Source of the DNA: an uncultured Candidatus Babeliaceae bacterium
GTDB lineage: Bacteria > Babelota > Babeliae > Babelales > Babelaceae
Assembly: GCA_963704655.1 (NCBI GenBank)
Contig: OY969927.1
Location: forward strand, 256,001-320,000
Length of the DNA stretch: 64,000 nucleotides
Reading direction: 5' to 3'
In this document: piece after piece, positions 5,230 to 64,000 of the stretch
How the letters are laid out: the number at the start of each line of letters is the position of its first letter
Numbering within the stretch: the first letter of the stretch is position 1
The notes under the pieces: model-generated
What the model saw: only the letters and a program-made list of their open reading frames with translations
Databases searched by the model: none
Told to the model about the DNA's origin: nothing
Translations under genes and position numbers: made by a program

Positions 5230-8200
5230 ATGAAGCAGTATCTTTATGCAGCAATCGCTGCAGCCATGTTATGTTTAGTATCTGTGAATGCGCACATAAA
5301 CTCCTTAGATAAGGCTTTTGAGGCTCTGCATGGGCTTGAAGATGCTCTTGAAAACAACAATCAAAGTGGTCTATCAAGTGATCTTGTTATTTTAGTGCTG
5401 CATGATCTTGCCTGTTATCTTGAACAGGATAGTGCGCTTTCTATAGATGAACATGCGGCTCTTGCAAAAAGAGTTTATCAGCTTGCAAAAAATCTTAATC
5501 TATTAACGCGTGCGCCCCGTTTTGATGCACCAGTAATACCACAAACAGGTATACTTGAAGAAAACTATTATAGAACTCGTGATCTATATTTGCGTAATCT
5601 TTTAATAACCGGATCGCTTATTTTAAATGGTCAGCAAATTGGCGGTAATGTACCAAGTGGATTGTATGTATTAAAAGCTGGTGACATTATGACCGGTGAT
5701 TTAACTATGGCAAACCAGCAGGGTATTGTCTTTGAGGACCTTACTTATACCGGTTCTGTAATTCTCACTGCACCAGCACTGGTAACAACGTCATATACGC
5801 TTGAGCTGCCAAGTCAACCAGGTGCGGCCGGGACAATTTTAGCAACAGATGGTGGCAACCCTGCTATACTTTCATGGGAATTACCCGTTTCACTTTTTAC
5901 GGCAACGGTTCAACTTTATGGTGATGTTATTGGTTCAACATCTGCTGACACCATTAATACTATTTGTGGTCAACAGGCTTGCGCAATTGTCACTACGGTA
6001 ACCAGTGCATCAAGTGGCAATGTATGTGGTACGCTTGTTAAGCGTGATGCAAATTGTAACTTTTCTGCAAACCTCATTACGGCTACGGCTACCAATGCGC
6101 TTATAACACAAACGGCATTATATGCGCAAAGCGCTGGCTCAGCTAACTTTGCCTTTACCTCTTCAAGTGCGTTATATTCAACAACGGCACAATATGCAAC
6201 AAACGCATTACTTTCGGTAACATCCCAATATGCAGCACAGGCAGGTACAGTAAACTTTGCCTTTACGTCTTCAAGTGCGTTATATTCAACAACAGTGCAA
6301 TATGCAACAAATGCATTACTTTCGGTAACATCACAGTATGCACAACAAGCTAGCTCAGCTAATTTTGCCTTTACGTCTTCAAGTGCGTTATATTCAACAA
6401 CAGTGCAATATGCAACAAATGCATTACTTTCGGTAACATCACAATATGCGCAAAATGCAGGTTCAGTTAACTTTGCCTTTACGTCATCTAGTGCGTTATA
6501 TTCAACAACAGCGCAGTATGCAACAAATGCATTACTTTCAGTAACCTCCCAATACGCACCACAAGCAGGTTCAGTGAACTTTGCCTTTACGTCTTCAAGT
6601 GCTTTATATTCTACAACGGCACAATATGCAACAAACGCATTACTTTCGGTAACGTCACAATATGCAACAAACGCAGGTTCAGTTAACTTTGCCTTTACGT
6701 CATCAAGTGCATTATTTTCAACAACAGCGCAATATGCAACCAATGTATTACTTTCAGTAACAACGCAGTATGCTCAAAATGTAAATTCGGCTAACTTTGT
6801 CTTTACGTCTTCTAGCGCGTTATATTCTACAACGGCCCAATATGTAACCAATGCATTACTTTCAGTAACGTCACAATATGCAGCACAAGCAGGCTCAGCT
6901 AATTTTGCCTTTACCTCATCTAGTGCGTTATATTCTACAACGGCCCAATATGCAACAAATGCATTGTTTTCAGTAACCTCCCAATACGCACCACAAGCAG
7001 GTTCAGTGAACTTTGCCTTTACGTCTTCAAGTGCTTTATATTCAACAACGGCACAATATGCAACAAACGCATTACTTTCGGTAACGTCACAATATGCAAC
7101 AAACGCAGGTTCAGTTAACTTTGCCTTTACGTCATCAAGTGCGTTATTTTCAACAACAGCACAATATGCAACAAATGCATTACTTTCAGTAACGTCACAA
7201 TACGCAACAACCGCAGGTACAGTGAACTTTGCCTTTACCTCATCTAGTGCGTTATATTCTACAACGGCCCAATATGCAACAAATGCATTACTTTCAGTAA
7301 CATCACAATATGTGCCATGTGCTGATTCTGCGAACTTTGCCTTTACCTCATCAAGCGCATTATTTTCAACAACGGCCCAATATGTAACAAATGCATTACT
7401 TTCAGTAACATCACAATATGTGCCATGTGCAGATTCAGCTAACTTTGCGTTTACCTCATCAAGCGCATTATTTTCAACAACGGCCCAATATGCAACAAAT
7501 GCATTACTTTCGGTAACGTCGCAATATGCGCCATGTGCAGATTCAGCAAACTTTGCCTTTACATCTTCTAGCGCGTTATATTCAACAACAGCAGTGTATG
7601 CAACAAATGCGTTACTTTCGGTAACCTCACAATATGCAGCACAAGCAGGCTCAGCTAACTTTGCCTTTACGTCATCAAGTGCGCTCTATTCAACAACGGC
7701 TGTGTATGCAACAAATGCATTACTTTCGGTAACATCAGAGTATTTCACCGGGCAATTATATGGTGATGTTATGGGGACACAAACTGCAACTCAAATTGTC
7801 ACCATCTGCGGCGTGCCTGCATGTAATTTAGTACAGGCATTTTCTATGGTACTTTCAGCAACATCATGTGATAGTCCATTAACTCTTATTTTACGAGATA
7901 CCACAGGTAGCTTTGAAGCCACAACTATAACATTAATGGGTAATAGTCTTATTAACTATAGTGAATATGGAGATTGCGATACGGGCCAAAATTTTATTTT
8001 TGCACCACTTAATTACAATACGATTATCGGTATAAATGCTAATAATAATAGTCCATCTGTAGGTTCAGGAAACACGGTCTATGGATTTAACGCACTTGCA
8101 AATAATAGTATGGCAGATGACAACACCGCAATCGGAGCAGATGCTCTTGCTAATACTATCAGTGGGCAATTGACAGCGGTTGGTTCAGGCGCATTATCCA

Positions 8201-10191
8201 GTATTACTTCAGGTACTCAAAATGTTGCTGTTGGCTATTACGCACTTAATGAAGATACTACCGACAACAATAATACTGCTTTAGGGTATCTGGCTATGAT
8301 TTACAGTAGTGGTGGTTCAAATAATACTGCCTGTGGAGCTTATGCATTACAGTATAATAGCGGGCATGATTCTATAGCATTTGGGAATTCCGTATTGCAA
8401 AATAACCAAACCGGTAACAGCATCGGTATCGGAAATTATGCTTTAGAAAGCGCTGGAAGTAATGTTTCAGATCTCATAGGCATTGGGTATCAAGCTTTAA
8501 ATCAGGTGTCTTCGTCAGGGTCATATCCACAGGGGGATGTTGCTATTGGGTCCAATGCTTTAGCCTCTCAGTATTATAGCGCGGGTTCTGTTGCCATAGG
8601 CTATTATAGTTTACGTACGCCCGTTTATGCACAAACCTTTTCCGGAAGCAATATAGCAATTGGCTATCAAACACTGTATAGTAGTGGCTCTACTAGTGAT
8701 AATATTGCACTTGGATCAAATGCTTTATATTCAAACGTTCTTGGCGAAACGCAAATCGCCATTGGGCACCAAGCGTTAGAAAATTTTACAGGTGAAAGTA
8801 TTGGAAATCCTTATGGTAATATAGCGATTGGTTATAATGCGTTACAAGCAAATCTAACGCGTTATATCATTGGGGTAGGTTCTGGTGCATTAGCACAAAA
8901 TACTACCGGCTATCAAAACGTTGGCATTGGTTATTATGCGTTAAACTTAAATACCACCGGAACTTCGAATGTTGCCTGTGGGTATCAAGCGCTTAATAAC
9001 TCTGCTAACTCTTGCAACAGCGCTTTTGGCGCATCAGCATTATCAATAGCATCAGGTTCCAGCAGACTAAACACTGCTGTTGGCTGCAATGCTTTAGGCA
9101 ACTTACAGACGGGTGCGAATAATGTCGCGCTTGGTTACTCAGCAGGGTTAAATTTAATCAGTGGTTCAGGAAATATCTATATTGGTGCAAATATACAGCC
9201 AGTAGGGACATCAGAAAATAATACCATACGGGTTGGTAATATTACCGGTACGCCAATATCAGTCGGAACAACGGTTGTTTCTGATATACAAAATAAAATC
9301 GGTGTTGCCACATCATCGCAAAACTTTAAAAACAATGTTCTGCCTATAACAACTGAGTCAAATAATATCTATGAGCTTAATCCGGTATTATTTACCTATA
9401 AAGATGATCCGCTCAATACCATTCAATATGGTTTTATCGCAGAAGAAGTTGCTACCATCTATCCAGGAACCGTGCCACTTGATCAAAATGGTATGCCCTT
9501 ATCAGTTGATTATCTGCAATTTGTGGCGCTGCTTACGAGTGAGATGCAAAAAGTGCATACTGTTTTACCCTATACAAGCACGTGTAATGTCGTTGTGGGC
9601 GCGCAGTCATTGCCAGAATTAACAAGTGGCACTTCAAATACCATAATTGGTGCTCAGGCAGGCTCAAATATCATCACGGGGTCACAAAATATCTATCTTG
9701 GTTGTGCAGTTACGGGCTCAGGAGATGAAAGCAATGTGATAAGAATCGGGGTGCAAGAGATGCAAACAGCTGCTTATGGTGCGGGCGTGTATAATCAAGC
9801 ATGCGTGCCAACAAATTTGCCGGTTATGATAGATGACACCGGAAAACTTGGTACCGTTTCGTCATCACGGCGTTATAAACATACTATTCAAGATATGGGC
9901 AGCATAACTGATAATATCTATGCATTACGTCCTGTTACTTTCAATAATCTTGAATATGGGCTTGTTGCTGATGAAGTTGAAGCGATCTTTCCAGGAATGG
10001 TTATTAAAAATAATGCTGGCTTGCCAGAAGCGGTTCAATATCAGTATGTGCCTATGATGATGCTTAATGAAAGAAAAAAAGATCATGCCCATATTAAGCG
10101 GCTAAAGGATACCGTCAAAAAACTTGCCAACAGGCTTGCTGAATTGCAGGAAAAATGTGATGCGCTATGCAAAAAAGCGCATCTTACTTGA
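5230..10191 (+). CDS. Giant secreted fibre/adhesin-like protein 1 with tandem Peptidase_S74 chaperone domains
   Basis: Signal peptide MKQYLYAAIAAAMLCLVSVNA; YVLKAGDIMTGDL tail-fibre motif; 15x36-aa repeats; NxAxGxxAL repeats; SSQNFK...YGFIAEEV and SSRRYK...YGLVADEV; terminal coiled coil. Confidence 0.9.
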   Translation: MKQYLYAAIAAAMLCLVSVNAHINSLDKAFEALHGLEDALENNNQSGLSSDLVILVLHDLACYLEQDSALSIDEHAALAKRVYQLAKNLNLLTRAPRFDAPVIPQTGILEENYYRTRDLYLRNLLITGSLILNGQQIGGNVPSGLYVLKAGDIMTGDLTMANQQGIVFEDLTYTGSVILTAPALVTTSYTLELPSQPGAAGTILATDGGNPAILSWELPVSLFTATVQLYGDVIGSTSADTINTICGQQACAIVTTVTSASSGNVCGTLVKRDANCNFSANLITATATNALITQTALYAQSAGSANFAFTSSSALYSTTAQYATNALLSVTSQYAAQAGTVNFAFTSSSALYSTTVQYATNALLSVTSQYAQQASSANFAFTSSSALYSTTVQYATNALLSVTSQYAQNAGSVNFAFTSSSALYSTTAQYATNALLSVTSQYAPQAGSVNFAFTSSSALYSTTAQYATNALLSVTSQYATNAGSVNFAFTSSSALFSTTAQYATNVLLSVTTQYAQNVNSANFVFTSSSALYSTTAQYVTNALLSVTSQYAAQAGSANFAFTSSSALYSTTAQYATNALFSVTSQYAPQAGSVNFAFTSSSALYSTTAQYATNALLSVTSQYATNAGSVNFAFTSSSALFSTTAQYATNALLSVTSQYATTAGTVNFAFTSSSALYSTTAQYATNALLSVTSQYVPCADSANFAFTSSSALFSTTAQYVTNALLSVTSQYVPCADSANFAFTSSSALFSTTAQYATNALLSVTSQYAPCADSANFAFTSSSALYSTTAVYATNALLSVTSQYAAQAGSANFAFTSSSALYSTTAVYATNALLSVTSEYFTGQLYGDVMGTQTATQIVTICGVPACNLVQAFSMVLSATSCDSPLTLILRDTTGSFEATTITLMGNSLINYSEYGDCDTGQNFIFAPLNYNTIIGINANNNSPSVGSGNTVYGFNALANNSMADDNTAIGADALANTISGQLTAVGSGALSSITSGTQNVAVGYYALNEDTTDNNNTALGYLAMIYSSGGSNNTACGAYALQYNSGHDSIAFGNSVLQNNQTGNSIGIGNYALESAGSNVSDLIGIGYQALNQVSSSGSYPQGDVAIGSNALASQYYSAGSVAIGYYSLRTPVYAQTFSGSNIAIGYQTLYSSGSTSDNIALGSNALYSNVLGETQIAIGHQALENFTGESIGNPYGNIAIGYNALQANLTRYIIGVGSGALAQNTTGYQNVGIGYYALNLNTTGTSNVACGYQALNNSANSCNSAFGASALSIASGSSRLNTAVGCNALGNLQTGANNVALGYSAGLNLISGSGNIYIGANIQPVGTSENNTIRVGNITGTPISVGTTVVSDIQNKIGVATSSQNFKNNVLPITTESNNIYELNPVLFTYKDDPLNTIQYGFIAEEVATIYPGTVPLDQNGMPLSVDYLQFVALLTSEMQKVHTVLPYTSTCNVVVGAQSLPELTSGTSNTIIGAQAGSNIITGSQNIYLGCAVTGSGDESNVIRIGVQEMQTAAYGAGVYNQACVPTNLPVMIDDTGKLGTVSSSRRYKHTIQDMGSITDNIYALRPVTFNNLEYGLVADEVEAIFPGMVIKNNAGLPEAVQYQYVPMMMLNERKKDHAHIKRLKDTVKKLANRLAELQEKCDALCKKAHLT
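6133..7752 (+). repeat. Coding tandem repeat, 15 x 108 bp (36 aa)
   Basis: AGSANFAFTSSSALYSTTAQYATNALLSVTSQYAxx counted 15 times. Confidence 0.95.
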
Positions 10192-10259
10192 CGTTATTAT
10201 TATTCGCATGCTAATAACAACTACAATATCTATGTTAAAAAAAGAGAGAGTAAGTATCT
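10188..10259 (+). promoter_or_regulatory. Conserved fibre-gene leader, copy 2
   Basis: TTGACGTTATTATTATT...TGCTAATAACAACTACAATA...A7-GAGAGAG...ATG. Confidence 0.8.
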
Positions 10260-13200
10260 ATGAAGCAGTATTTTTATGCAGCAGTTGCTGCAGCAATGTT
10301 ATACGCACTATCTATGCACGCCCAGATAACATCACCAGATCAAGCCTATGGGGTGTTGCAGGAGCTTGAACTGCTCACGCAGGGTGATCAATATGATGCA
10401 TCACAAGATAATGTTATATTAGTGCTCGATGAGCTTGTGCGTTATCTTGAAAGCGATATACCACTTTCAATGCATGATCGTTTAGCATTGAGTAAAAAGG
10501 TAAGTCAGCTTGCAAAATCTCTTAATCTTCAGACACGCGCGCCTCGTTTTGATGCGCCAGAAATACCACAAACAAGTATACTTGATGAAAATTATTATAG
10601 AACCCGTGATCTATATTTGCGTAATCTTTTAATAACCGGTTCTCTTATTTTAAATGGTCAGCAGGTTGCTGCACATGTTCCAAGTGGGTTGTATGTATTA
10701 AAAGCTGGTGACACCATGACGGGTGATTTAACTATGGCAAGTCAGCATGGCATCGTGTTTGATGATGCTGCAACCGGCTCAGTTACTATCATAGCACCTG
10801 CAACTGTTTCACCCACCTATACACTTGAGTTGCCAACGCAACCGGGTGCAATGGGGACCGTTTTAACAGCAGATGGTAATAACCCAGCACAGCTTTCTTG
10901 GCTGCCAGTTACTGTTGTTACCACAGCAACTATTCAACTTTATGGTGATGTTATTGGCTCATCAACTGCAACCATAGTAAATACTATTTGTGGTCAAAAG
11001 GCATGTAACATTGTTACTACGGTAACTACCGGTACAAGTAACAATGTCTGTGGCACATTGGTAATGCGTGATAGCGACTGTAACTTTTCAGCAAATATCA
11101 TTACGGCAACGGTAACCAACGCGCTTCTTTCACAAACAGCATTATATGCGCCATGCGCAGGTTCTGCTAACTTTGCTTTTACGTCTTCTAGTGCGCTCTA
11201 TTCAACAACGGCAGTGTATGCAACAAACGCATTGCTTTCAGTAACGTCACAATATGCAACGCAAGCGGGTTCTGCTAATTTTGCCTTTACGTCATCAAGT
11301 GCGCTCTATTCAACAACGGCGCAATATGCAACAAATGCTTTACTTTCAGTAACGTCGCAATATGCAACACAAGCGGGTTCTGCTAATTTTGCCTTTACGT
11401 CATCAAGTGCGCTCTATTCAACAACGGCGCAATATGCAACAAATGCTTTACTTTCAGTAACATCACAGTATGCAGCACAAGCAGGTTCAGCAAACTTTGC
11501 CTTTACGTCATCTAGCGCGTTATATTCAACAACAGCGGTCTATGCAACAAATGCATTACTATCAGTAACGTCGCAATATGCAACACAAGCGGGTTCTGCT
11601 AATTTTGCCTTTACGTCATCAAGTGCGCTCTATTCAACAACGGCCCAATATGCAACAAATGCTTTACTTTCGGTAACGTCGCAATATGCAACACAAGCGG
11701 GTTTTGCTAATTTTGCCTTTACGTCATCTAGTGCATTATTTTCAACAACAGCAGTATATGCAACAAATGCATTACTTTCGGTAACGTCGCAGTATGCAAC
11801 GCAAGCAGATTCGGCTAATTTTGCCTTTACTTCTTCTAGTGCATTATTTTCAACAACGGCAGTTTATGCAACAAATGCATTACTTTCGGTGACGGCACAA
11901 TATGCGCCATACGCAGATTCTGCTAACTTTGCCTTTACTTCTTCTAGTGCATTATTTTCAACAACGGCCCAATATGCAACAAATGCATTACTTTCGGTAA
12001 CGTCGCAATATGCAACACAAGCGGGTTTTGCTAATTTTGCCTTTACGTCATCTAGTGCATTATTTTCAACAACAGCAGTATATGCAACAAATGCATTACT
12101 TTCGGTAACGTCGCAGTATGCAACGCAAGCAGATTCGGCTAATTTTGCCTTTACTTCTTCTAGTGCATTATTTTCAACAACGGCAGTTTATGCAACAAAT
12201 GCATTACTTTCGGTGACGGCACAATATGCGCCATACGCAGATTCGGCTAATTTTGCCTTTACGTCATCTAGTGCGTTATATTCAACAACAGCGGTCTATG
12301 CAACAAATGCCTTACTTTCAGTAACGTCACAATATGCGCCATACGCAGATTCTGCTAACTTTGCCTTTACCTCATCAAGCGCATTATTTTCAACAACAGC
12401 CCAATATGCAACAAATGCATTACTTTCGGTAACGGCACAATATGCAGCAACCGCAGGTTCTGCTAACTTTGCCTTTACTTCTTCTAGCGCGTTATATTCA
12501 ACAACTGCGCAATATGCAACTAATGCATTGCTTTCAGTAACGTCGCAATATGCGCAAAACGCAGGTTCTGCTAACTTTGCCTTTACGTCATCGAGCGCGT
12601 TATATTCAACAACAGCGGTCTATGCAACTAACGCATTACTTTCAGTAACGTCGCAATATGCAGCACAAGCAGGCTCAGCTAACTTTGCCTTTACGTCATC
12701 AAGTGCGCTCTATTCAACAACGGCCCAATATGCAACAAATGCATTACTTTCGGTAACTTCGGAGTATTTCACCGGGCAATTATATGGCGATGTTGTGGGA
12801 ACACAAGATGAAACTCAAATTGTCTCTATCTGCGGCGTGCCTGCATGTAATTTAGTACAGACATTTTCTATGGTACTTTCAGCAACATCATGTGATAGTC
12901 CGTTAACTCTTATTTTGCGAGATGACACTGGCAGCTTTGCAGCAACAACTATTACTTTAACGGGCGATAGTCTTATTAATTATAATCCCTATGGTGATTG
13001 TGGCCCTAGTTCTGGTTTTATCTTTTCTCCCATTTATGACAATACGATTATTGGTTTAAATGCTAATAACAACGACCCATTTGCAGGTTCAAATAATACC
13101 GCATATGGTTTTAATGCCCTTGCAAGCAATTATTTGGCAACTGACAACACGGCAATTGGGGTAAATGCACTCAGTAGTAACACTATGATTAGTCAATTGA

Positions 13201-15182
13201 CCGCAGTTGGTTCAGGTGCATTGGCGCAAAATCAATTCGGTTATAACAATGTAGCTGTTGGCTATTTTGCCCTTAATGCAAATTTAGATGATTACAATAA
13301 TACTGCTTTAGGGTATGAGGCTATGAGTAACAGTAGTGGTTCAAATAATACCGCATGTGGGGTGCAAGCATTACAAAATAATACCGGCGGAGATAATATA
13401 GCAATAGGCTTAGAAGTATTGATAAGTAATACTGGTAGCCGCAACATAGGTATTGGAAATTATGCTTTTGGAGAAGCCGTTTGTAATGCATCAGATTGTG
13501 TCGGAATAGGTTATAAAGCTTTAGCAAATCTAACTAACTCTAATTCTCAAGGTGATATTGCTATTGGAACCAATGCTTTAATGAGTCAAATCAATAGCAC
13601 CGGTTCTGTGGCAATTGGTTACCAGGCGTTACAAAACCAAAATACGCTTTACCCGAATGTGGCCATTGGATACCAGGCAATGTATTATAATAACAGTGGT
13701 ATATATAACACCGCAGTTGGCCCCAAAACTTTATATTATAATACTTCTGGAAGCGGGAATGTCGCTATCGGTAATCAAGCATTACAAAATTCCACTTTAA
13801 GTGATAATACCGCAGTTGGAAGTTTTGCATTAGAATTGAATCAAGTGAATCAAAATACTGCAATTGGGTATCAGTCATTAACAATGAATACCTTGGGCGT
13901 TCAAAATGTTGCCGTTGGGTACCAAGCATTGAGCAAAAATACCACGGGCTCATCAAATGTTGCATGTGGGTATCAAGCGCTTGCTAACTCTGTTGGATAT
14001 GGCAACAGCGCTTTTGGCACGTTCGCATTGGGATCATTAGTTTCTGGTTCACAAAACACTGCTGTTGGTGACGGCGCTTTAGGCTCATTGTCCTCGGGTA
14101 AAGGAAATACTGCAATAGGTTATTATGCAGCGTCTAACCAGCCAGGTGGTTCAGGAAACATCTATATTGGTGCAAGTATAGGGGCACAAACAAATGAAAG
14201 TAATACTACACGCATTGGTAATATTCTCAACACGTCAATAACAGGCGGAACAACGGTTGTTATTGATGCACAAAATAAATTAGGATATCTCGCGTCATCG
14301 AAAAATTTAAAAAACAACATTGTGCCTATAACGACAGATTCAAATAATATCTATGGGCTCACTCCAGTATCATTTACCTACAAAAATGACCCGTTAAATA
14401 CCATTCAGTATGGTTTTATTGCTGAAGATGTTTTTACCATTTACCCGGGAACTGTGCCTCTTGATAAAAATGGTTTGCCTTTTTCTGTTCAATACCACCA
14501 ATTTGTACCCTTACTTATCAATGAAATGCAAAAATTACATACTGTTTTACGGTATACAAGCACGTGTAATGTTGCTGTGGGCACACAGGCATTACCAGAC
14601 GTAACCAGTGGTGTTTCAAATACGGTAATCGGTGCACAAGCAGGCTCAAATATTATCACCGGATCACAAAATATCTATCTTGGTTACGGAGTAACCGGAC
14701 CAATAGATGAAAGTAATGTGATAAGAATCGGGGCGCAAGATACGCAAAAATCGGCGTATATTGCTGGTATTTATAATCAAGCATATGGGGCAACTGCCCT
14801 GCCGGTTATGATAGATGAAACGGGAAAACTTGGTACTGTTTCGTCATCGCGCCGTTACAAAAATAATGTTCAGGACATGGGTACTCTCACACAAGATATT
14901 TATAAGCTACGGCCTGTTACCTTCAATTACAAAAATGATACAACAGGTCATCTTGAATATGGTCTGATAGCTGAAGAAGTGGAAGCTATTTATCCAGGAA
15001 TTGTTATTAAAAATAGTGATGGTTTGCCTGAAACGGTTCAATATCAGTATTTGCCTATCATGATGCTTAACGAGCAGCAAAAAGATCATGCCGAGATTAT
15101 CGAATTACATGGTGCAGTTTATGATCTTACGCATAAAATTGCAGAATTAGATGCAAAAATAAATGCATTAATTAACCAGTAA
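10260..15182 (+). CDS. Giant secreted fibre/adhesin-like protein 2 with tandem Peptidase_S74 domains
   Basis: Collinear paralog of 5230-10191; SSKNLK...YGFIAEDV and SSRRYK...YGLIAEEV. Confidence 0.9.
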   Translation: MKQYFYAAVAAAMLYALSMHAQITSPDQAYGVLQELELLTQGDQYDASQDNVILVLDELVRYLESDIPLSMHDRLALSKKVSQLAKSLNLQTRAPRFDAPEIPQTSILDENYYRTRDLYLRNLLITGSLILNGQQVAAHVPSGLYVLKAGDTMTGDLTMASQHGIVFDDAATGSVTIIAPATVSPTYTLELPTQPGAMGTVLTADGNNPAQLSWLPVTVVTTATIQLYGDVIGSSTATIVNTICGQKACNIVTTVTTGTSNNVCGTLVMRDSDCNFSANIITATVTNALLSQTALYAPCAGSANFAFTSSSALYSTTAVYATNALLSVTSQYATQAGSANFAFTSSSALYSTTAQYATNALLSVTSQYATQAGSANFAFTSSSALYSTTAQYATNALLSVTSQYAAQAGSANFAFTSSSALYSTTAVYATNALLSVTSQYATQAGSANFAFTSSSALYSTTAQYATNALLSVTSQYATQAGFANFAFTSSSALFSTTAVYATNALLSVTSQYATQADSANFAFTSSSALFSTTAVYATNALLSVTAQYAPYADSANFAFTSSSALFSTTAQYATNALLSVTSQYATQAGFANFAFTSSSALFSTTAVYATNALLSVTSQYATQADSANFAFTSSSALFSTTAVYATNALLSVTAQYAPYADSANFAFTSSSALYSTTAVYATNALLSVTSQYAPYADSANFAFTSSSALFSTTAQYATNALLSVTAQYAATAGSANFAFTSSSALYSTTAQYATNALLSVTSQYAQNAGSANFAFTSSSALYSTTAVYATNALLSVTSQYAAQAGSANFAFTSSSALYSTTAQYATNALLSVTSEYFTGQLYGDVVGTQDETQIVSICGVPACNLVQTFSMVLSATSCDSPLTLILRDDTGSFAATTITLTGDSLINYNPYGDCGPSSGFIFSPIYDNTIIGLNANNNDPFAGSNNTAYGFNALASNYLATDNTAIGVNALSSNTMISQLTAVGSGALAQNQFGYNNVAVGYFALNANLDDYNNTALGYEAMSNSSGSNNTACGVQALQNNTGGDNIAIGLEVLISNTGSRNIGIGNYAFGEAVCNASDCVGIGYKALANLTNSNSQGDIAIGTNALMSQINSTGSVAIGYQALQNQNTLYPNVAIGYQAMYYNNSGIYNTAVGPKTLYYNTSGSGNVAIGNQALQNSTLSDNTAVGSFALELNQVNQNTAIGYQSLTMNTLGVQNVAVGYQALSKNTTGSSNVACGYQALANSVGYGNSAFGTFALGSLVSGSQNTAVGDGALGSLSSGKGNTAIGYYAASNQPGGSGNIYIGASIGAQTNESNTTRIGNILNTSITGGTTVVIDAQNKLGYLASSKNLKNNIVPITTDSNNIYGLTPVSFTYKNDPLNTIQYGFIAEDVFTIYPGTVPLDKNGLPFSVQYHQFVPLLINEMQKLHTVLRYTSTCNVAVGTQALPDVTSGVSNTVIGAQAGSNIITGSQNIYLGYGVTGPIDESNVIRIGAQDTQKSAYIAGIYNQAYGATALPVMIDETGKLGTVSSSRRYKNNVQDMGTLTQDIYKLRPVTFNYKNDTTGHLEYGLIAEEVEAIYPGIVIKNSDGLPETVQYQYLPIMMLNEQQKDHAEIIELHGAVYDLTHKIAELDAKINALINQ
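11157..12776 (+). repeat. Coding tandem repeat, 15 x 108 bp (36 aa)
   Basis: Same unit as 6133-7752; span is exactly 1620 bp. Confidence 0.95.
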
Positions 15183-15298: not shown

Positions 15299-18200
15299 AT
15301 GAAGCAATATCTTTATGCAGCAATCGCTGCAGTTGTATTATTTGTGGCATCTTTACAAGCAGAAATAACCTCATTAGATAAGGCTTATGGGGTTTTACAA
15401 GAGCTTGAAATGTTCGCACAAGGCGATCAACTTGAAGCATCGAGTGATTCTGTTATGTTAGCACTTGATGAACTTATACGTTACCTTGAAAGTGATACAC
15501 TGCTTTCAGCAAATGTTCGTTTGGATATTTCAAAAAAGATTAATGTTCTTGTTAAAAAAATTAATCTGCAGACACGTGCGCCACGTTTAGATGCACCAGA
15601 AATACATGAAACTACAATACTTAATGAAAATTATTACCCAACGCGCGATCTCTATTTACGCAACTTACTCATTACTGGCTCGCTTATTTTAAATGGCCAG
15701 CAGATCGGCGGTGGCGGCAGTGTGCCAAGTAATCTCTATGTATTAAAAGCTGGCGACACCATGACGGGCGATTTAACCATGGCAGATCAGCACGGCATCG
15801 TCTTTGATGATACCAATTCTGGTTCTATAACTATTACTGCACCAGCAGCTGTTTCACCTGCTGGGACAAACTACACATTTGAATTACCCATAAATGCTGG
15901 CGGAAATGGTCAAGTTTTAACTACAGATGGCGGTAACCCAGCAATGCTTTCCTGGCAACCGGTTACTGCAATAGTAACAGCAACTATTCAATTATATGGT
16001 GATGTTGTTGGTTCAACATCTGCAACAAAAGTCGCATTTGTTTGCGGCGTGCCTGCATGTAACATTGTTCAAACCTATTCGACGGTTCTGTCTGCAACCA
16101 GTGCTAACCAGTGCGGCACACTTGTCTTGAGGGACAGCAACTGCAACTTTTCTGCTAATTTAATTACAGCAACGGTGACAAATGCACTTCTTTCACAAAC
16201 AGCGTTATATGCAACAAATTCATTACTTTCTGTAACATCGCAATATGCACAAAACGCAGGTTCGACTAACTTTGCCTTTACATCATCGCTTGCACAATAT
16301 GCATTAACTTCATTAACTTCAACAAGTGCACAATATGCAACAAATTCATTACTTTCTGTAACGTCACAATATGCAGCGAACGCTGGTTCAACTAACTTTG
16401 CTTTTACGTCATCGCTTGCACAATATGCATTAACAGCATTAACATCAACAAGTGCACAATATGCAACAAATGCGCTACTTTCTGTAACATCGCAATATGC
16501 AGCGAACGCTGGTTCAACTAACTTTGCTTTTACGTCATCGCTTGCACAATATGCACTTACTGCATTAACATCAACAAGTGCACAATATGCAACAAATTCA
16601 TTACTATCGGTAACGTCACAATATGCAGCAGTAGCAGGGGCAACTAACTTTGCCTATACATCTTCAAGTGCATTACTTTCTACAAGTGCACAATATGCTA
16701 ATGTTGCTGGATTTACTAACTTTGCCTTAACAGCATCAAGCGCGCTGCTTTCAACAACGGCACAATATGCAGCAGTAGCCGGGGCAACTAACTTTGCCTA
16801 TACATCTTCAAGTGCGTTACTTTCTACAAGTGCACAATATGCTAATGTTGCTGGATTTACTAACTTTGCCTTAACAGCATCAAGCGCGCTGCTTTCAACA
16901 ACGGCACAATATGCAGCAGTAGCCGGGGCAACTAACTTTGCCTATACATCTTCAAGTGCGTTACTTTCCACAAGCGCACAATATGCTAATGTTGCTGGAT
17001 TTACTAACTTTGCCTTAACAGCATCAAGCGCGCTGCTTTCAACAACGGCGCAATACGCAGCAGTAGCAGGGGCAACTAACTTTGCTTATACATCTTCAAG
17101 TGCATTACTTTCTACAAGTGCACAATATGCTAATGTTGCTGGATTTACTAACTTTGCCTTAACAGCATCAAGCGCGCTGCTTTCAACAACGGCACAATAT
17201 GCAGCAGTAGCCGGGGCAACTAACTTTGCCTATACATCTTCAAGTGCGTTACTTTCCACAAGCGCACAATATGCTAATGTTGCTGGATTTACTAACTTTG
17301 CCTTAACAGCATCAAGCGCGCTGCTTTCAACAACGGCGCAATACGCAGCAGTAGCAGGGGCAACTAACTTTGCTTATACATCTTCAAGTGCATTACTTTC
17401 TACAAGTGCACAATATGCTAATGTTGCTGGATTTACTAACTTTGCCTTAACAGCATCAAGCGCGCTGCTTTCAACAACGGCGCAATACGCAGCAGTAGCA
17501 GGGGCAACTAACTTTGCCTACACATCTTCAAGTGCGTTACTTTCCACAAGTGCACAGTACGCTAATGTTGCTGGATTTACTAACTTTGCATTAACTGCAT
17601 CAAGCGCGCTGCTTTCAACAACGGCACAATATGCAGCAGTAGCCGGGACAACTAACTTTGCCTACACATCTTCAAGTGCATTACTTTCTACAAGTGCACA
17701 GTACGCTAATGTTGCTGGATTTACTAACTTTGCATTAACTGCATCAAGCGCGCTGCTTTCAACAACGGCGCAATACGCAGCAGTAGCAGGGGCAACTAAC
17801 TTTGCCTTTACATCATCGCTTGCACAATATGCATTAACAGCATTAACATCAACAAGTGCACAGTATGCAACAAATTCATTACTATCGGTAACATCGCAAT
17901 ATGCAGCGAACGCTGGTTCGACTAACTTTGCTTTTACATCATCGCTTGCACAATATGCATTAACAGCATTAACATCAACAAGTGCACAGTATGCAACAAA
18001 TTCATTACTATCGGTAACATCGCAATATGCAGCAAACGCTGGCTCAACTAACTTTGCCTTTACATCATCGCTTGCACAATATGCATTAACGGCACTGACA
18101 TCAACAAGTGCACAGTATGCAACAAATTCATTACTTTCTGTAACATCGCAATATGCGCAAAACGCGGGCTCAACTAACTTTGCTTTCACGTCATCAGTTG

Positions 18201-21200
18201 CGCAATATGCATTAACTTCATTAACTTCAACAAGTGCACAATATGCAACTAATGCATTGCTTTCTGTAACGGCACAGTATGCAAAAAATGCAGGTTCAAC
18301 AAACTTTGCTTACACATCATCAAGTGCGTTATATTCAACAACGGCACAATACGCACTTACTGCACTGACATCAACAAGTGCGCAATATGCAACAAATGCG
18401 CTACTTTCTGTAACATCGCAATATGCAGCAACCGCTGGTTCAACTAACTTTGCCTACACATCATCAAGCGCGTTATATTCAACAACGGCACAATACGCAC
18501 TTACTGCATTAATATCAACAAGTGCACAATATGCAACTAACGCGTTACTTTCTGTAACTTCACAATATGCAGCTAATGCTGGCTCAACTAACTTTGCTTA
18601 TACGGCATCGAGTGCGTTATATTCAACAACGGCACAATATGCACAGGTAGCAAACAGCGCCAATTATATTTGCGGCGTGCCAGCATGTAATTTAGTAAAT
18701 ACCTATTCACAGGTACTTTCTGGAACAAGTTATGATATTCCATTAAAGCTGGTTCTACGTGATAGCACCGGCAGCTTTGCAGCAACTACGGTTACGTTAA
18801 CTGGCGCATTAAGGCTGCAAAATGCAAATGGTAATCTTACTACGCTTGAAGCTGGTGCGCAAAGTTTTGCTCCAGTCTATACATTAATATTGCCAACAAC
18901 AATTGGTGGTGATAATCAGGTATTAACAACAGACGGTAATAACCCAGCAAATCTTTTTTGGCAGCCTGTTTCTGCAATAACCACATCGACTATTTTGCTC
19001 TATGGCGATGTTACCGGATCTTCTACTGCAAATAGGGTAACAACTATTTGTGGTGTGCCAGCATGTAATCTGGTGAATACCTACTCATTTGTACTTTCCG
19101 GGACAAGTGCAGATATTCCATTAACCTTAGTTTTACGTGATTCAACCGGAAGTTTTGCAGCAACTACGGTTACGTTAACAGGCGCATTACAATTGCAAAA
19201 TGCAAATGGTAATCTTACTGCGTTTCAAGCGGGTGCGCAAAGTTTTGCTCCAGTTTATACATTAATATTGCCAACATCCGTGGGTGGTGATAATCAGGTA
19301 TTAACAACAGACGGTAATAACCCTGCAAACCTTTCATGGCAGCCTGTTACTGCAATAACCACATCGACTATTTTGCTCTATGGCGATGTTACCGGATCTT
19401 CTACTGCAAATAGGGTAACAACTATTTGTGGCGTGCCAGCATGTAATCTGGTGAATACCTACTCATTTGTACTTTCCGGTACAAGTGCAGATATTCCATT
19501 AACATTAGTTTTACGTGATTCAACAGGAAGTTTTTCAGCAACAACTATAACGGCAAGTTCTATTATTGTTGATAATCAAACACTTGTTGTTGACCCTATT
19601 AATCATTTAGTAGGTATTGGCACCAATCAACCAGCATTATATCCACAAGGACGTTTATTGGAACGCATTACGCCTAATATTCCAAGCTTTAGTGGTATTG
19701 CTCCGGGAAGTTGCTCGGGAGATTTTATTAACTCATCGTATATCGCGCAACCAAGTAGTATTATTGGCGTTAATCAAGTGGGGATCATCTCGATTAATGA
19801 CCCAGTAAATCTCAATCTGGTTGCAACGATAAACGGAGGCTTTCCAACACAAACACGTGTAACGGGAACGACATTATATGTTTTAAATTCAGCAGGCTTT
19901 TTATCACCACGTAACTCCATTGCGCGCTATGATGTAAGTAACCCATTGGACCCTGTTTTTGTAAATGAGTTTAACTGTCTACCATTTCCAGGAAATATAG
20001 CCGTGACATCAAGTAATGTTTACGAAACTGATGTGTTGCGTGGATTATTTATCTATGATTCGGAGCTTGATTATCTAGGCAGCACCACGCCATTTTCTGC
20101 ATTTAGTTTAGCTGTTTCAAATGATATTGCATTAGTCGGTACGCTCGAAGGGCAACTTTATGCCTTTAATGTTTCAAATCCAGCAAATATAGTACCATTA
20201 GGGTCATTGCTCTTCACAAACCCTGTTGTTGATATTAACATTCAGGGGATATATGCATTTGTTTCACTTGCTACACACAATGGAATTCCTGGAAGCGTGC
20301 AGATTGTTAATATTTCAAATCCAAATGCATTAACTATTGCTAACGTTCTTACCACGAATCTTTTATCACCTATACAAACGCTGATAAAAAATAATATATT
20401 GTATGTTGTTGACGCTGTTCTGAATACCATTAATGAATATGATATTACCACGATAACCTCACCAGTGTTCCTTACCAGTTATAATAATGGTACACCGCTT
20501 TCATCGATACTTTCAAATAGCCAAAACCTTTATGCAATTCCGACACAGGGATCACTTTTTGCCCTTAACCCAGCTTCAGAATTCTTGTTAACCGTTACCG
20601 GTGATACGCTTATCGGCGGCATCCTTAATTTATTACCAACAGGTAGCGGCAGTGGACAAATCAAGATTGGTGGGGCTACCGTATTACATACCTTTAATGG
20701 TGGCACCTATGTGGGGCCAAATGCTGGGAATTTCTCGACTATCAATGGCATTGGAAATTTAGAAAGTAATAATATAAGTGAAGCACAAAACAGTACCGCT
20801 GTTGGCGCAAACAGTCTTGCAAATATTATCAGTGGATTTAATAACACCGCAATTGGCGCGCAAGCCAGCCAGTACCTGACAAATGGAAATGATAATACTG
20901 CTGTGGGCTTTGCAACATTACTAGAAAATAACTCTGGCTCACAAAATACTGTTGTTGGTTCACGCGCGTTAAGTGGTTCAGACTACTTATGCACCTCAAC
21001 TATTACCGTAAACGATTGCACCGCAGTCGGCTTTAATGCGCTTAATGTAAATAATGCAGATCAAATTACTGCCATCGGATCTGGTGCATTACAAAATAAT
21101 AGCACCGGGCTACAAAATACTGCTCTTGGTTATAATGCACTTCAAGGTAACATTGCAGGCAATACCAATACCGCTGTTGGCCATAACAGTTTAAACAGCG

Positions 21201-24200
21201 CTCAAAATAGCAGTAACAATACCGTAATCGGTGCAGAATCAGGAACATCTTCAAGTCTTGGTTCGTATAATATCTATCTGGGCGATAGCATTAACTTTGG
21301 TGGAGAAGGTAATACCATACGCATCGGCACCCAAGGTGTACAAGCAGCCGCTTACATGGCTGGGGTTACGGGAAACTTACAACCTTCTGCATTGCCAGTT
21401 ACGATCAATAGTAATGGGCTATTGGGTGTAGGGAATCTCATTACTACAAGCGCTATCTATTTCACCGGGCAATTATATGGTGATGTTATTGGCACACAAA
21501 CAGCGACACAGGTTGTTACGGTCTGCGGAGTGCCTGCATGTAGTTTGGTAAATTCGTATTCAAAAATACTTTTAGCTACAAGCTGTGATAATGCATCAAC
21601 ATTAGTGGAACGTGATGAAACGGGCAGCTTTGAAGTAACCACTATTACCTTTACTGGCAACAGTTTAATTAATTATAGTTCTTTAGGTGGCTGTGATACC
21701 GGCCAAGCCTTTGTCTTTGCGCCAACAAATCAAAATACCATTATTGGTCTTGGAGCAGGCAATAATAATATTTTAACGGGCATCAGCAACGTTGCACTTG
21801 GTTATAATGCGCTTATGAGTGCAACAGCGGCTTTTGACAACATCGCCATTGGCGCATTTGCGGGTCAAAGCCTTGTAGGTGGAGTTGATAATATCGCTAT
21901 TGGTACAGACGCATTAGCATCAACCCAACAAGGTTTTTGTAATGTTGCTATAGGAACCTCGGCATTAATGACGGCAACAGATGTTCCTACGCCTAAGGGA
22001 TTGATCCCTTTACAATATAATGTTGCTATCGGGTACCAAGCTCTCATGAATACATTGGCTGGGGAAGCTGCGGTATCCCCATTCCTTCCTAACAAAATCT
22101 TTATTAATACTGCTGTAGGAAGTTTAGCTTTAACCACTAATATATCGGGCAATGTTAATACCGCCATTGGCTACAGCGCATTAACCAATAATATTGTTGG
22201 TAGCAGGAACACCGCAGTTGGGAATTCGGCATTATCAACTGTAATTTCTGGTGATGGCAATACAGCAATAGGTTCTGGTGCAAATGTTTATGACCCGGAT
22301 GCACAAAACAGAACGGCCATAGGTTCAGGCGCTATTGCTTTTGTTGATAACAGCATCATGCTTGGCTCTAGTGCTGTGCAGTATATTATGCCAGGTGGCT
22401 ATAATTTGACGGATCTTGGTTATCCACCATCTAATCTTTTAAATAATGTGCAGGCAACCCAACTTAATCTTTATGATAGCACTGATACAATATATGCGGG
22501 CATTACTGCGCCAGAAAATTATAATTATACCTATACCTTATACATGCCTGTTAGCCAAGGTTTTGCTAACCAAGCGCTTATGACAGACGGTAATAACCCT
22601 GCGCAACTAAGTTGGGGTACCATCGTTACAAATAGCACCCAATCGTGCGATATACCATCGACCCTTGTCTTACGCGATGATACGGGCAGCTTTGCAGCAA
22701 CAACAATTACACTCACGGGAAATAGTCTTATTAATTACAGCTCACTTGGCGCATGCAATACTGGTTCTGGCTTTATCTTTGCACCAACAAACCAAAATAC
22801 TCTTATTGGTCTTGGTGCAGGCAATAGCAATATTCTCACTGGAACCAATAATACCGCCTTTGGGTATAATGCGCTTGCAGCTATAACATCTGGGTATCAC
22901 AATGCCGCTGTGGGTGTGGGGACATTAAGTGCATTGAATTATAATTCTGCCTATAACACCGCATTAGGAAATTTTGCAGGTAAACATTTGCTTAATGGCA
23001 GTTACAATGTGTTATTAGGTTATGGTGCAGGTGCGGGCTTTACCAATGGTAATAACAATATCGCCATTGGATATCAATCTCTCATTCAAACAGCTACTTT
23101 CTGTGACAATATCGCAATCGGGGCTTTGGCCTTATGGAACAATAGCGCAAACCAAAACCTTGCAATCGGTTCGTATGCCCTTGAATATAATACCTCGGGA
23201 ACAGGCAACAGCGCTATTGGTTATACTGCATTAATCAATAGTACAACCGGAAATTATAATACGGCATTTGGTTATCTTGCAGGTTCAAATTCACTTGGTT
23301 CAAATAATATCTATCTTGGTGCGAATGTTACCGGAAACAGTTCTGATAACGGTGTTATTCAGATCGGCAACCAGGGCGTGCAAAATGCTGCATATGTTGC
23401 GGGCATCTATAATAACTTACAAATGGGTGAACCGGTAGTTATTACCAGCAGTGGCCAACTTGGCATAGGCTCATATTCAAATCTTATTAACACCGCAACT
23501 TCATGCGACAATGCACTTACACTTGTGCTGCGCGACAGCACCGGCAGCTTTGCAGCAACAACAATTACACTCACGGGCAATAGTTTAATTAATTACAGTT
23601 CTGTCGGCGGATGCGATACTGGCCAAAGCTTTATTCTTGCACCAACGCAAGGTAATACCATTATCGGTTTAAGTACCGGCACTGCTATAACAACCGGTAC
23701 GAATAATATTTATCTTGGTGCCAATATTAATAAAGGCAATGAAAGTGGTGCTATCCGTATAGGGAACAGCAATCAAACTTCAGCATATGTTGCGGGCATT
23801 TATAATAACTTACAAGTGGGTGAACCGGTAGTTATTACCAGCAGTGGCCAACTCGGCATAGGCTCATATTCAAATCTTATTAACACCGCAACATCATGCG
23901 ACAATATATTGTCGCTGGTTCTGCGTGACAGCACGGGCAGTTTTGCAGCAACAACAATTACACTCACGGGCAACAGTTTAATTAATTACAGTTCTGTCGG
24001 CGGATGCGATACTGGCAAAAGCTTTATTCTTGCACCAACGCAAGGTAATACCATTATCGGTTTAAATACCGGTACTGCTATAACAACCGGTACGAATAAT
24101 ATTTATCTTGGTGCCAATATTAATAAAGGCAATGAAAGTGGAGCTATCCGTATAGGGAACAGCAACCAAACTGCTGCATATGTTGCCGGCATTTACAATA

Positions 24201-35470: not shown

Positions 35471-36829
35471 TTAACTGTTGGTACAATTATTGCTGCATAT
35501 TTGGGTCACAGTTGTACTTTCAGCCAGTGAAACATTATTGTAAGCATCAATAGCAACAACATAGTAGGTATTTGATGGCGGGTTGACGGTGTAATCTATA
35601 TATTGATAGATTGTTGATGGCACGGATGCTACCAGTTCTGTCAGCGCTGCATCATAATAAATATTATATGATACCGGTGGATTAATCTCACTTGCCGGTG
35701 CTGACCACTTGATTACATTTGATAGAGAAATCGGTTGATTAAGGGCTATCGTTTTTTGCATGCAGGAAGATACATTTTGTGGCGCGTTAGTAAGTACCGT
35801 TCTTAGTGTAGATACGCTGTTGCCCGTATAATTGGCTACGTAGGCATAATAGTTATCTGGGTGTATAACTAATGCAATTGGTCCTGAAAATCCTGGAACT
35901 GTTGTTATAACTGTTGGGTTTGCCGGGTTCATGAGATTAAGCGCGGTAACAGAGTTGGTAGATTCATCACATACATAAGCGTATAATCCACTGGGGGTTA
36001 CGGCAATAGCAGTTGGGTTGCTAACGGCAACTGATGCGCCAACTACAGGTGTTGTAGGGTCAGAAAGATTAAGTGTGGTAACAGCGTTTCCACTTTGGTT
36101 GCATACATATGCGTAATTACCTGATGGGTGAATGGCAATTGCAACGGGGTTGTTAATAGTTACAGAATTGCCAGCTGTTGGGCTTGCAGGGGTTGTTAAA
36201 TCTTGAACAAGAACCACATTATCAACTGCGTCGCACACATAGGCATATTGACCACTTGGAATTATTGCCATGGCAGCAGGGTTATTAACAGTAGTAAAGG
36301 TATTGTATGCGCTTGCTGATTCAGGAGTTGAATAGAAAATTACATAGCCGGTGTTGCTTGATTCATTGAGTACATACAGATAATAACCGGCACCAGGGTA
36401 CATTGCGGTTACTACTGGTGTAACCAATGATGGAAATGTATAAAAAATTCCATATGATGGTTCAGCAGGATCTGTGAACGCGAAGTAATATATAATGCCT
36501 GTTGCACCATTGTTAGTGCCTATATAACCATATTGGCCCCCGTATAATCCGCCGGGTATAATAGTTAGGTTGCTCGTTGGTTCTAAAGGAAATGTAATGT
36601 AATAACCAACGATACTTGGTGCTGCAGGATTTGTTAGATCAAGACTATTAAGTGCTGGAGTGCTTGAAATAGTATCTATCACATACGCAAAGTCACCTTG
36701 TGGGCGTATGGCAATTGTGCTTGGGGTATCTAATGGGCCTGCTGTATTGACAATGGTATTTGGTGGGTTAAGAGCATAGACAATGTTTGATAATGTCACT
36801 AGCGCACTTAAAAATATTTTTTTATTCAT
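35471..36829 (-). CDS. Secreted beta-propeller protein (YVTN/lactonase-like) with C-terminal FN3-like domain
   Basis: Signal peptide; repeated PxAIAIxPxGxYAYVxN blades; IKWSAP...SYNIY...YYVVAIDAYNNVS. Confidence 0.85.
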   Translation of the reverse strand: MNKKIFLSALVTLSNIVYALNPPNTIVNTAGPLDTPSTIAIRPQGDFAYVIDTISSTPALNSLDLTNPAAPSIVGYYITFPLEPTSNLTIIPGGLYGGQYGYIGTNNGATGIIYYFAFTDPAEPSYGIFYTFPSLVTPVVTAMYPGAGYYLYVLNESSNTGYVIFYSTPESASAYNTFTTVNNPAAMAIIPSGQYAYVCDAVDNVVLVQDLTTPASPTAGNSVTINNPVAIAIHPSGNYAYVCNQSGNAVTTLNLSDPTTPVVGASVAVSNPTAIAVTPSGLYAYVCDESTNSVTALNLMNPANPTVITTVPGFSGPIALVIHPDNYYAYVANYTGNSVSTLRTVLTNAPQNVSSCMQKTIALNQPISLSNVIKWSAPASEINPPVSYNIYYDAALTELVASVPSTIYQYIDYTVNPPSNTYYVVAIDAYNNVSLAESTTVTQICSNNCTNS

Positions 36830-63998: not shown

Positions 63999-64000
63999 TT

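Follow-up and report, generated by a model that had tools for sequence, protein, structure and literature searches.

Among intramolecular chaperones, the S74 domain is a textbook case. In T5 pb1 and endoNF it folds the beta-helix that lies upstream of it and departs after a Ser-Lys cut (PMC4690869), and in MyRF trimerisation, which cleavage requires, is driven mainly by a C-terminal coiled coil (PMC8326128). The mosaic adhesive trimeric (MAT) fibres of the predatory bacterium Bdellovibrio bacteriovorus, which attacks other cells, start with a signal peptide and share a conserved N-terminal domain; of the 21, 13 end in S74, and self-cleavage at S74 has been shown for one of them, the chromosomal fibre Bd3182, in which S782A blocks the cut (PMC10769870). 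In the parts of the published accounts available to us, S74 is single and leaves after one cut in phage and MAT fibres, and lies inside the chain in MyRF. Here we describe two adjacent giant fibre genes, F1 and F2, from an uncultured Candidatus Babeliaceae bacterium, each of which encodes two S74 domains, an internal copy without a coiled coil and a terminal copy with one. Both lie in a stretch of 64,000 nucleotides (contig OY969927.1, positions 256,001 to 320,000 of the forward strand), analysed as a whole and called the window below.

Two S74 domains in each of two fibre proteins

The F1 and F2 open reading frames (ORFs) are both uninterrupted and contain the following features.

F1: 5230..10191, plus strand, 1653 residues, with a signal-peptide-like N-terminus, 36-residue repeats, a beta-helical head and the tandem S74 cassette
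F1 stalk repeat array: 6139..7737, plus strand, 14.8 copies of a 108-bp (36-residue) tandem repeat (Tandem Repeats Finder)
F1 internal S74 core: 9313..9561, plus strand, residues 1362-1444, motif SSQNFK, not followed by a coiled coil
F1 mini-head (tip module B): 9562..9861, plus strand, residues 1445-1544, N-x-x-x-G rungs and then NIYLG..ESNVIRIG..PVMIDDTGKLGTVS
F1 terminal S74: 9862..10188, plus strand, residues 1545-1653, motif SSRRYK, core and a 33-residue tail
F2: 10260..15182, plus strand, 1640-residue paralogue of F1 (72% identity overall) with the same architecture
F2 repeat array: 11157..12761, plus strand, 14.9 copies of a 108-bp tandem repeat (Tandem Repeats Finder)
F2 internal S74 core: 14295..14543, plus strand, residues 1346-1428, motif SSKNLK, not followed by a coiled coil
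F2 mini-head (tip module B): 14544..14843, plus strand, residues 1429-1528
F2 terminal S74: 14844..15179, plus strand, residues 1529-1640, motif SSRRYK, core and a 29-residue heptad coiled-coil tail

A first-pass annotation, made from the letters and their ORFs, had proposed that each protein holds an internal S74-like domain, a short repeat head and then a second S74. Its four motifs lie exactly where it placed them (SSQNFK at 9313, SSRRYK at 9862, SSKNLK at 14295 and SSRRYK at 14844), and L.PV.FTY and YGFIAE follow the internal motifs as it described. When each segment was scanned alone against Pfam PF13884 (Peptidase_S74), all four exceeded the gathering score of 22 bits, with 42.1 bits (E 1e-10) for the internal and 29.5 bits (E 9e-7, the lowest of the four) for the terminal copy of F1, and 44.7 bits (E 1.6e-11) and 49.1 bits (E 7e-13), respectively, for those of F2. 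PF13884 also matched two stretches in each whole protein, and a hidden Markov model (HMM) of the S74 core that we built ourselves recovered the internal copies with E values of 1e-37 (F1) and 8e-39 (F2). F1 and F2 are thus confirmed to contain two true S74 domains each, a result well outside what chance would give.

Alignment of the eight S74 copies of the window revealed 13 invariant columns, including Ser1, Lys6, Leu22, Pro24, Phe27, Gly40, Ala43 and Tyr67. The two internal copies share 76% identity with each other but only 32-47% with any of the terminal ones. A profile built from all eight matched 8hqz (T5-like L-shaped tail fibre) at E 5e-6, 6f45 (long-tail-fibre tip) at E 3.8e-4 and 7dc3 (MyRF ICA domain) at E 0.015, and in the MyRF alignment Arg4 corresponds to R590, Lys6 to K592, Phe27 to Y615 and Tyr29 to Y617. 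A phmmer search with the C-terminal 440 residues of F2 returned no PDB sequence at E ≤0.01.

The internal and terminal copies differ in how they end. The internal copies finish in ..NEMQKLHTVL and run straight into RYTSTCNVAVG, reaching the first rung of the following repeat within about 10 residues and with no heptad pattern, whereas every terminal copy continues into a tail of about 30 residues, which in F2 has hydrophobic residues spaced 3-4-3-4 over 29 residues. The coiled coil that follows the core is therefore present in the terminal copies and absent from the internal ones. Compared with F2 and the other paralogues, the terminal core of F1 (9862-10089) is missing 8 residues, a deletion that removes Tyr29 (Y617 of MyRF) and accounts for the low Pfam score of this copy; judged from the alignment, the larger defect of F1 lies in its terminal rather than its internal copy.

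Between the two copies lies a segment of about 100 residues (..NIYLG..ESNVIRIG..AYIAGIYN..PVMIDETGKLGTVS), in which the repeat head of the first-pass annotation is present as five N-x-x-x-G rungs (NVAVG, NTVIG, NIITG, NIYLG and NVIRIG). In neither protein did the 87-residue segment between the S74 copies match a Pfam family. When 1.84 billion representative sequences were searched with the 295-residue F2 cassette (phmmer), 25,345 matches were obtained at E ≤0.001, and most of the 150 matches listed cover query residues ~88-290, which correspond to the mini-head and the terminal S74. The mini-head is homologous to a widely conserved module that precedes S74 in most relatives.

Conservation and history of the internal copies

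As a reference for the residues of the internal copies, 313 single-copy relatives were aligned to the S74-core HMM. Ser1 and Lys6 (S-x-x-x-x-K) are present in 8/8 window copies and in 313/313 of these relatives. The internal copies of F1 and F2 keep all 13 window-invariant columns and, of the positions conserved in at least 95%, all except Leu41 (Phe) and Leu75 (Ile in F2, Thr in F1). Position 4 of the motif, the Arg of S-D-x-R-x-K, is Asn in both internal copies and Arg in the terminal copies, as in 93% of the single-copy relatives. The first-pass annotation was right that the internal copies retain Ser and Lys and have lost this Arg; it overlooked the loss of Arg23 and of the coiled coil. 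In MyRF, S587A and K592A abolish cleavage, as does the Y615A/Y617A double mutation, and R590A perturbs cleavage with no complete block (PMC8326128). Arg4 is usual but not universal in S74, and its loss is not evidence of an inactive copy, since the equivalent MyRF mutant R590A still cleaves in part.

Structural models were generated with AlphaFold2 as monomers. Model 1 (F2 residues 1311-1640, 47 sequences) predicts the terminal S74 with predicted local distance difference test (pLDDT) values of 95-98, followed by a long C-terminal helix at model residues 285-329, and the F2 mini-head as regularly spaced short strands with pLDDT 70-91. Model 2 (F2 residues 1246-1447, 70 sequences, with ordinary S74 sequences aligned to the internal copy) predicts the internal S74 with pLDDT >90 over most of the domain, dropping to 45-53 where the rungs begin. 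Offsets from the Ser are alike in the internal and terminal models, with a helix at about +14 to +20, strands at +24 to +26 and +37 to +39, a second helix at +42 to +48 and a third, long one from +66. The top Foldseek match of both models is 7dc3 (MyRF ICA), at E 6e-4 for the terminal model and at E 0.013 with probability 1.00 for the internal one, and 3gud and 3gw6 come next for both. The internal region therefore scores as S74 in Pfam and, given a deep alignment, is modelled as S74, the good model being alignment-driven.

Selection was estimated segment by segment between F1 and F2 by the Nei-Gojobori method, as the ratio of non-synonymous to synonymous substitution rates (dN/dS). The values, which are rough because they come from a single gene pair with high dS, are 0.17 for the internal S74, 0.15 for the terminal S74 core, 0.26 for the mini-head and 0.61 for the head just upstream of the cassette. 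Purifying selection on the internal copy appears to be as strong as that on the terminal copy.

A tree of 77 S74 cores over 85 columns pairs the internal copies of F1 and F2 (Shimodaira-Hasegawa-like approximate likelihood ratio test, SH-aLRT, 98), and the internal copy of the database protein P0008 joins this pair (SH-aLRT 84) apart from all terminal copies. P0008, a protein of 605 residues and probably a fragment, has family-specific motifs in common with the window proteins and an order of domains identical to that of F1 and F2, with an S74 without coiled coil, a mini-head and an S74 with coiled coil. Across the entire tandem region it shares 52% identity with F2, and Arg4 is retained in its internal motif, SSKRFK. 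The grouping of the internal copies of F1, F2 and P0008 suggests that the compact arrangement predates the split of F1 and F2 and has been kept.

To place these proteins, S74 copies were counted in 324 relatives from outside the window: one copy was found in 313, two in 6, three in 4 and none in 1. Because the query used to fetch these relatives contained two S74 domains of its own, the set is enriched in multi-copy proteins, and 10/324 (3%) is not a population frequency. The ten are P0004, P0007, P0008, P0009, P0010, P0011, P0016, P0028, P0035 and P0158. In nine of them (all but P0008) each S74 has its own C-terminal tail, coiled-coil-like except for the hydrophobic tail of P0011, and is followed by a new full unit. 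The copies within any one of the nine are each other's nearest relatives in the tree, which points to repeated, independent and recent duplications. Across all ten proteins Ser1 and Lys6 are kept in 13/14 internal copies, the exception being the first copy of P0010. Four of these proteins (P0004, P0007, P0010 and P0028) consist of three complete units of fibre, S74 and coiled-coil-like tail per chain, reach up to 7103 residues and have the Ser-Lys motif intact in nearly all copies. Another protein, P0390, was considered as a case of a single internal S74 and set aside for its low-complexity tail.

A tblastn search of 50,697 phage records with the cassette matched 51 records, none covering at least 80% of the tandem query; in S-B28, a long match at first sight, both S74 copies of the query hit one and the same 91-residue stretch. 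A profile scan of genome contigs with the tandem alignment returned only four distant Verrucomicrobia loci, which match the mini-head. Full-text literature searches, over the portions of articles they reach, found descriptions of single copies and none of tandem, double or multiple S74, ICA or IMC domains. The first-pass annotation had taken S74 to be normally single; proteins with more than one copy prove to be recurrent in this enriched set of relatives, and none was found characterised. The tandem S74 arrangement is real, conserved and recurrent in databases and, as far as these searches reach, undescribed.

Possible workings of the cassette

F1 and F2 belong to a family of six paralogues in the window, the other four of which are listed here with the internal junctions found in them.

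F3: 15299..27388, plus strand, 4029-residue paralogue with a single S74 at its end and 4 internal S74-less tip-module junctions
F4: 27469..35394, plus strand, about 2641 residues when counted from the ATG at 27469, with a single S74 at its end and 2 S74-less junctions
F5: 37053..42941, plus strand, 1962-residue paralogue with a single S74 at its end and 1 S74-less junction
F6: 58905..64000, minus strand, C-terminal 1697 residues of a paralogue that extends beyond the window, with one terminal S74
S74-less junctions: F3 residues 2040, 2719, 2850 and 2981; F4 residues 246 and 1149 (counted from the TTG at 27385); F5 residue 1231

The ORF of F4 as listed begins at that TTG and overlaps the F3 stop; a signal-peptide-like MKQILYTLLFF.. 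at 27469, 28 codons downstream, is the likelier start.

The tip module that precedes S74 also occurs without S74 inside F3 (four times), F4 (twice) and F5 (once), giving seven junctions. At these the module (NIYLG..IRIG..AYVAGIY..GQLG) is followed directly by a new unit that begins SYSNLINTATSCD..LVLRDSTGSF; the boundary reads ..PVVITSSGQLG / IGSYSNLINTATSCD..LVLRDSTGSF.., with no S74 between. The part of F6 inside the window starts at such a junction. From the junctions in F3, F4 and F5 fibre units appear to be routinely concatenated in this family, and only F1 and F2 among the six paralogues have a junction that retains an S74 core. The first-pass annotation had recognised the fibre setting, and had missed both these seven junctions and the fact that the genes are cellular (Dependentiae).

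We tentatively favour, at a probability of roughly 45%, a relay that runs from the C- to the N-terminus, in which the complete terminal S74 would replace the missing coiled coil of the internal copy and both copies would be cut. This scheme starts from what is observed, namely which domains are present, how well they are conserved and that one coiled coil is missing; from these observations we infer the trimerisation, the order of folding and the two cleavages. The composite cassette at the end of F1 and F2, which would serve maturation, has three parts: an S74 core that has lost its coiled coil, the tip module (about 100 residues) and an S74 complete with its coiled coil. The terminal S74 would trimerise through its heptad coiled coil and nucleate the small tip module, and the resulting trimer would substitute for the lost coiled coil by keeping three internal S74 cores in register. 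The internal S74 would then chaperone the main fibre and cut before Ser1362 (F1) or Ser1346 (F2), and the terminal S74 would cut before Ser1545 (F1) or Ser1529 (F2). Three products are predicted: the mature fibre, a piece of 183 residues comprising internal S74 and tip module, and a chaperone, which would measure 109 residues in F1 and 112 in F2. Of the three options that the first-pass annotation had offered (a polyprotein, staged folding, or a non-cleaving domain retained as structure), we lean towards those with an active internal copy, whether in staged folding or in a polyprotein, over a purely structural relic because of the apparent purifying selection, the near-invariant positions that have been kept, the dyad present in 13/14 internal copies elsewhere and the behaviour of MyRF R590A.

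Several observations weigh against the relay. The internal copies of F1 and F2 lack Arg4 (93% in the 313 single-copy relatives), Arg23 (92%) and Asp11 (78%), as well as about 15 residues of the usual pre-S74 segment. In model 1 the internal S74 has pLDDT <50, which we attribute to coverage of the internal region by only three sequences; model 2 is biased towards the S74 fold because its alignment consists of ordinary S74 homologues, and the Foldseek E-values of the internal model are weak (0.013). Estimates of dS in the single gene pair range from 0.55 to 0.94, those of 0.76-0.94 being near saturation. The tree has only 85 columns and its key branch (SH-aLRT 84) falls under the starred support level. 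Outside the window the compact form occurs in one protein only, P0008, among the 324 relatives examined. With seven S74-less junctions in the paralogues, moreover, the tip module could be mere extra fibre and the internal S74 an uncut joint.

In that last case the internal S74 would never be cut and would persist in the mature fibre, linking the main head to a distal tip module as a trimeric knob or joint; chaperone and protease activity would be confined to the terminal S74, and the mature fibre would end at Ser1544 (F1) or Ser1528 (F2). This would fit the joint loss of Arg4, Arg23, Asp11 and the coiled coil from the internal copy, the purifying selection that the tip module itself is under (dN/dS 0.26) and the S74-less concatenation in F3, F4 and F5, which makes distal extension of the fibre normal in the family. 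We nevertheless regard it as somewhat unlikely, as Ser1 and Lys6 have been kept in F1, F2 and P0008 despite the substantial divergence of the F2 and P0008 internal copies (a long path in the tree), the same pair persists in 13/14 internal copies of the multi-S74 proteins, and MyRF R590A still cleaves (PMC8326128). These considerations, together with selection and the conserved columns, serve equally a polyprotein in which both sites are cut and the 183-residue piece is a functional mini-fibre on an N-terminal base formed by the internal-S74 trimer, so that one gene would yield two adhesive products. Short stand-alone proteins of head and S74 do exist, such as the 428-residue Babeliaceae protein P0058 with a signal-peptide-like start, and eight other multi-S74 proteins repeat whole units with their own S74 and coiled-coil-like helical tail, the ninth, P0011, having a hydrophobic tail. 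The 183-residue piece, however, has neither a signal peptide nor a known anchor of its own, its head of about 100 residues is the conserved pre-S74 module and not a variable tip, and nothing indicates that the piece binds anything, which makes such a product improbable.

Finally, the internal copy could be a roleless accident, left by neutral recombination between paralogues or by misassembly of repeated genes. The paralogues are indeed mosaic and repeat-rich, and the window's own genome was absent from the genome collection scanned, where it would have provided an independent check of the assembly. The same arrangement is nevertheless found in two diverged adjacent genes (72% identity) and in the independent protein P0008, with low dN/dS and uninterrupted reading frames, and an accident is highly improbable. 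A broader and doubtful reading is that multi-S74 fibre genes in general are autoproteolytic polyproteins, in which each internal S74 might cut off the upstream fibre and then form the N-terminal base of the next unit's trimer, several trimeric products thus arising from one gene; in F1, F2 and P0008 trimerisation might have been handed to the second S74, making it the chaperone of a chaperone. If the internal cut were partial, a relay of this sort might furnish two fibre lengths or tips per gene.

Cellular setting and comparison with known systems

The host chromosome is about 1.3 Mb in size and belongs to Babeliaceae (Dependentiae), and the fibre genes sit between housekeeping genes. Neighbouring ORFs encode SpoIID/LytB, YdjM, seryl-tRNA synthetase (SerRS), SecD, a HemN-like radical SAM enzyme, TatD, OMP decarboxylase, a CDP-alcohol phosphatidyltransferase and an ATP-dependent DNA ligase. 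Of 23 ORFs scanned in the window, five are fibre paralogues, and phage structural domains were found in 0/18 of the others. The SerRS is 87% identical to a protein from a metagenome-assembled genome named 'Candidatus Babeliaceae bacterium', and its other named relatives are from Dependentiae or Babeliales. F1 and F2 are cellular genes and not phage or prophage genes.

The six giant paralogues, F1-F6, occupy 40,886 of the 64,000 bases of the window (64%). F6 would be 4777 residues long in full, judged from P0005, which has an identical tail. All six have a hydrophobic, signal-peptide-like start and PF13884 at the C-terminal end, and on a reading of the sequence alone the hydrophobic N-terminus carries an A-x-A-like site; the paralogues look secreted. 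Their N-termini are of two types, one in F1, F2, F3 and F5 (55-76% identity over the first 230 residues) and one in F4 and F6 (45% identity to each other). Database relatives are named 'tail fiber domain-containing protein [Candidatus Babeliaceae / Dependentiae bacterium]' or 'trimeric autotransporter adhesin'. F1 matches phage tail-spike and fibre PHROG families, NCBIfam gave no match for F1 or F2, and an ESM Atlas search with the N-terminal 260 residues of F2 returned only scores <0.9. The head repeats bear a weak fold resemblance to YadA-like adhesin heads and left-handed beta-helices (Foldseek, E ≥0.02), and Pfam found no YadA-like C-terminal membrane anchor in F1-F6. F1 and F2 are not autotransporters. 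Their 36-residue repeats, about 15 per array, are near-perfect and rich in Ser, Thr and Ala, and F3 carries related, longer arrays; a Pfam match to a Plasmodium histidine-rich protein family in the F1 and F2 arrays is spurious.

Other genes lie among and around the fibres. A gene of the lactonase-type 7-bladed beta-propeller family is located between F4 and F5 (35471-36829, minus strand) and a family 2 glycosyltransferase after F5 (43065-43958); the fibres or the surface of the cell might be the target of either one. A CT398/CdsZ-like protein (2269-2973) combines a coiled-coil hairpin with a zinc ribbon and has an NCBIfam score of 55, far short of the cut-off of 275. A chlamydial origin of the window, which this match might suggest, is rejected in view of that score and of the SerRS relatives, which are from Babeliaceae and Dependentiae. 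The ATP-dependent DNA ligase (53588-55357) is of the eukaryote/archaeon type (TIGR00574, 398 bits).

In this protist parasite of the Dependentiae, phage-like fibres thus take up almost two thirds of a stretch of 64 kb; they are candidate host-attachment organelles. To our knowledge, attachment and entry are poorly known in Dependentiae, and the available portions of some published Dependentiae genome descriptions make no mention of fibres or adhesins. The tandem itself is a domain duplication of specialist interest, not an astonishing one. Being conserved and having a helix-less inner copy, it amounts to a natural experiment on what the coiled coil contributes, and it lets one ask if an S74 is able to fold a second S74 and if self-processing polyproteins can be encoded by fibre genes.

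F1 and F2 resemble the phage IMC proteins (K1F endosialidase, 3GW6; T5 pb1, 4UW8/8HQZ) in their PF13884 domains, in a Ser and Lys five residues apart and in the beta-helical segment upstream, and their terminal copies resemble pb1 in having a C-terminal coiled coil (PMC4690869). They differ from these proteins in carrying two copies per chain, the inner one without a coiled coil, and in being encoded by a cellular gene. The upstream sensor Arg of endoNF (R897) and pb1 (R1250), 14 residues before the Ser, has no counterpart in F1 and F2; the F2 terminal copy has Pro at position -14 and Lys at -6 relative to the Ser. The ICA domain of MyRF (7DC3), the best structural match of both models, likewise lies inside its chain with more protein downstream. 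MyRF, unlike F1 and F2, has one copy, which keeps its coiled coil and is followed by a transmembrane segment (PMC3742443; PMC8326128); in the place of that segment, the internal S74 of F1 and F2 is followed by a second fibre module and a second S74.

The closest characterised analogue of F1-F6 appears to be the MAT fibres of B. bacteriovorus, which likewise form a chromosomal multigene family of long fibres (PMC10769870); the N-terminal domains of the two are likened by description only. The window fibres are larger, reaching 4777 residues compared with about 1000 for MAT fibres, for which the published passages report only a single terminal S74 in place of the two found in F1 and F2 (PMC10769870), and their host, unlike Bdellovibrio, is a protist parasite. 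Taken together, F1-F6 are probably host-attachment fibres analogous to the MAT fibres, working in a like manner, and may be their relatives.

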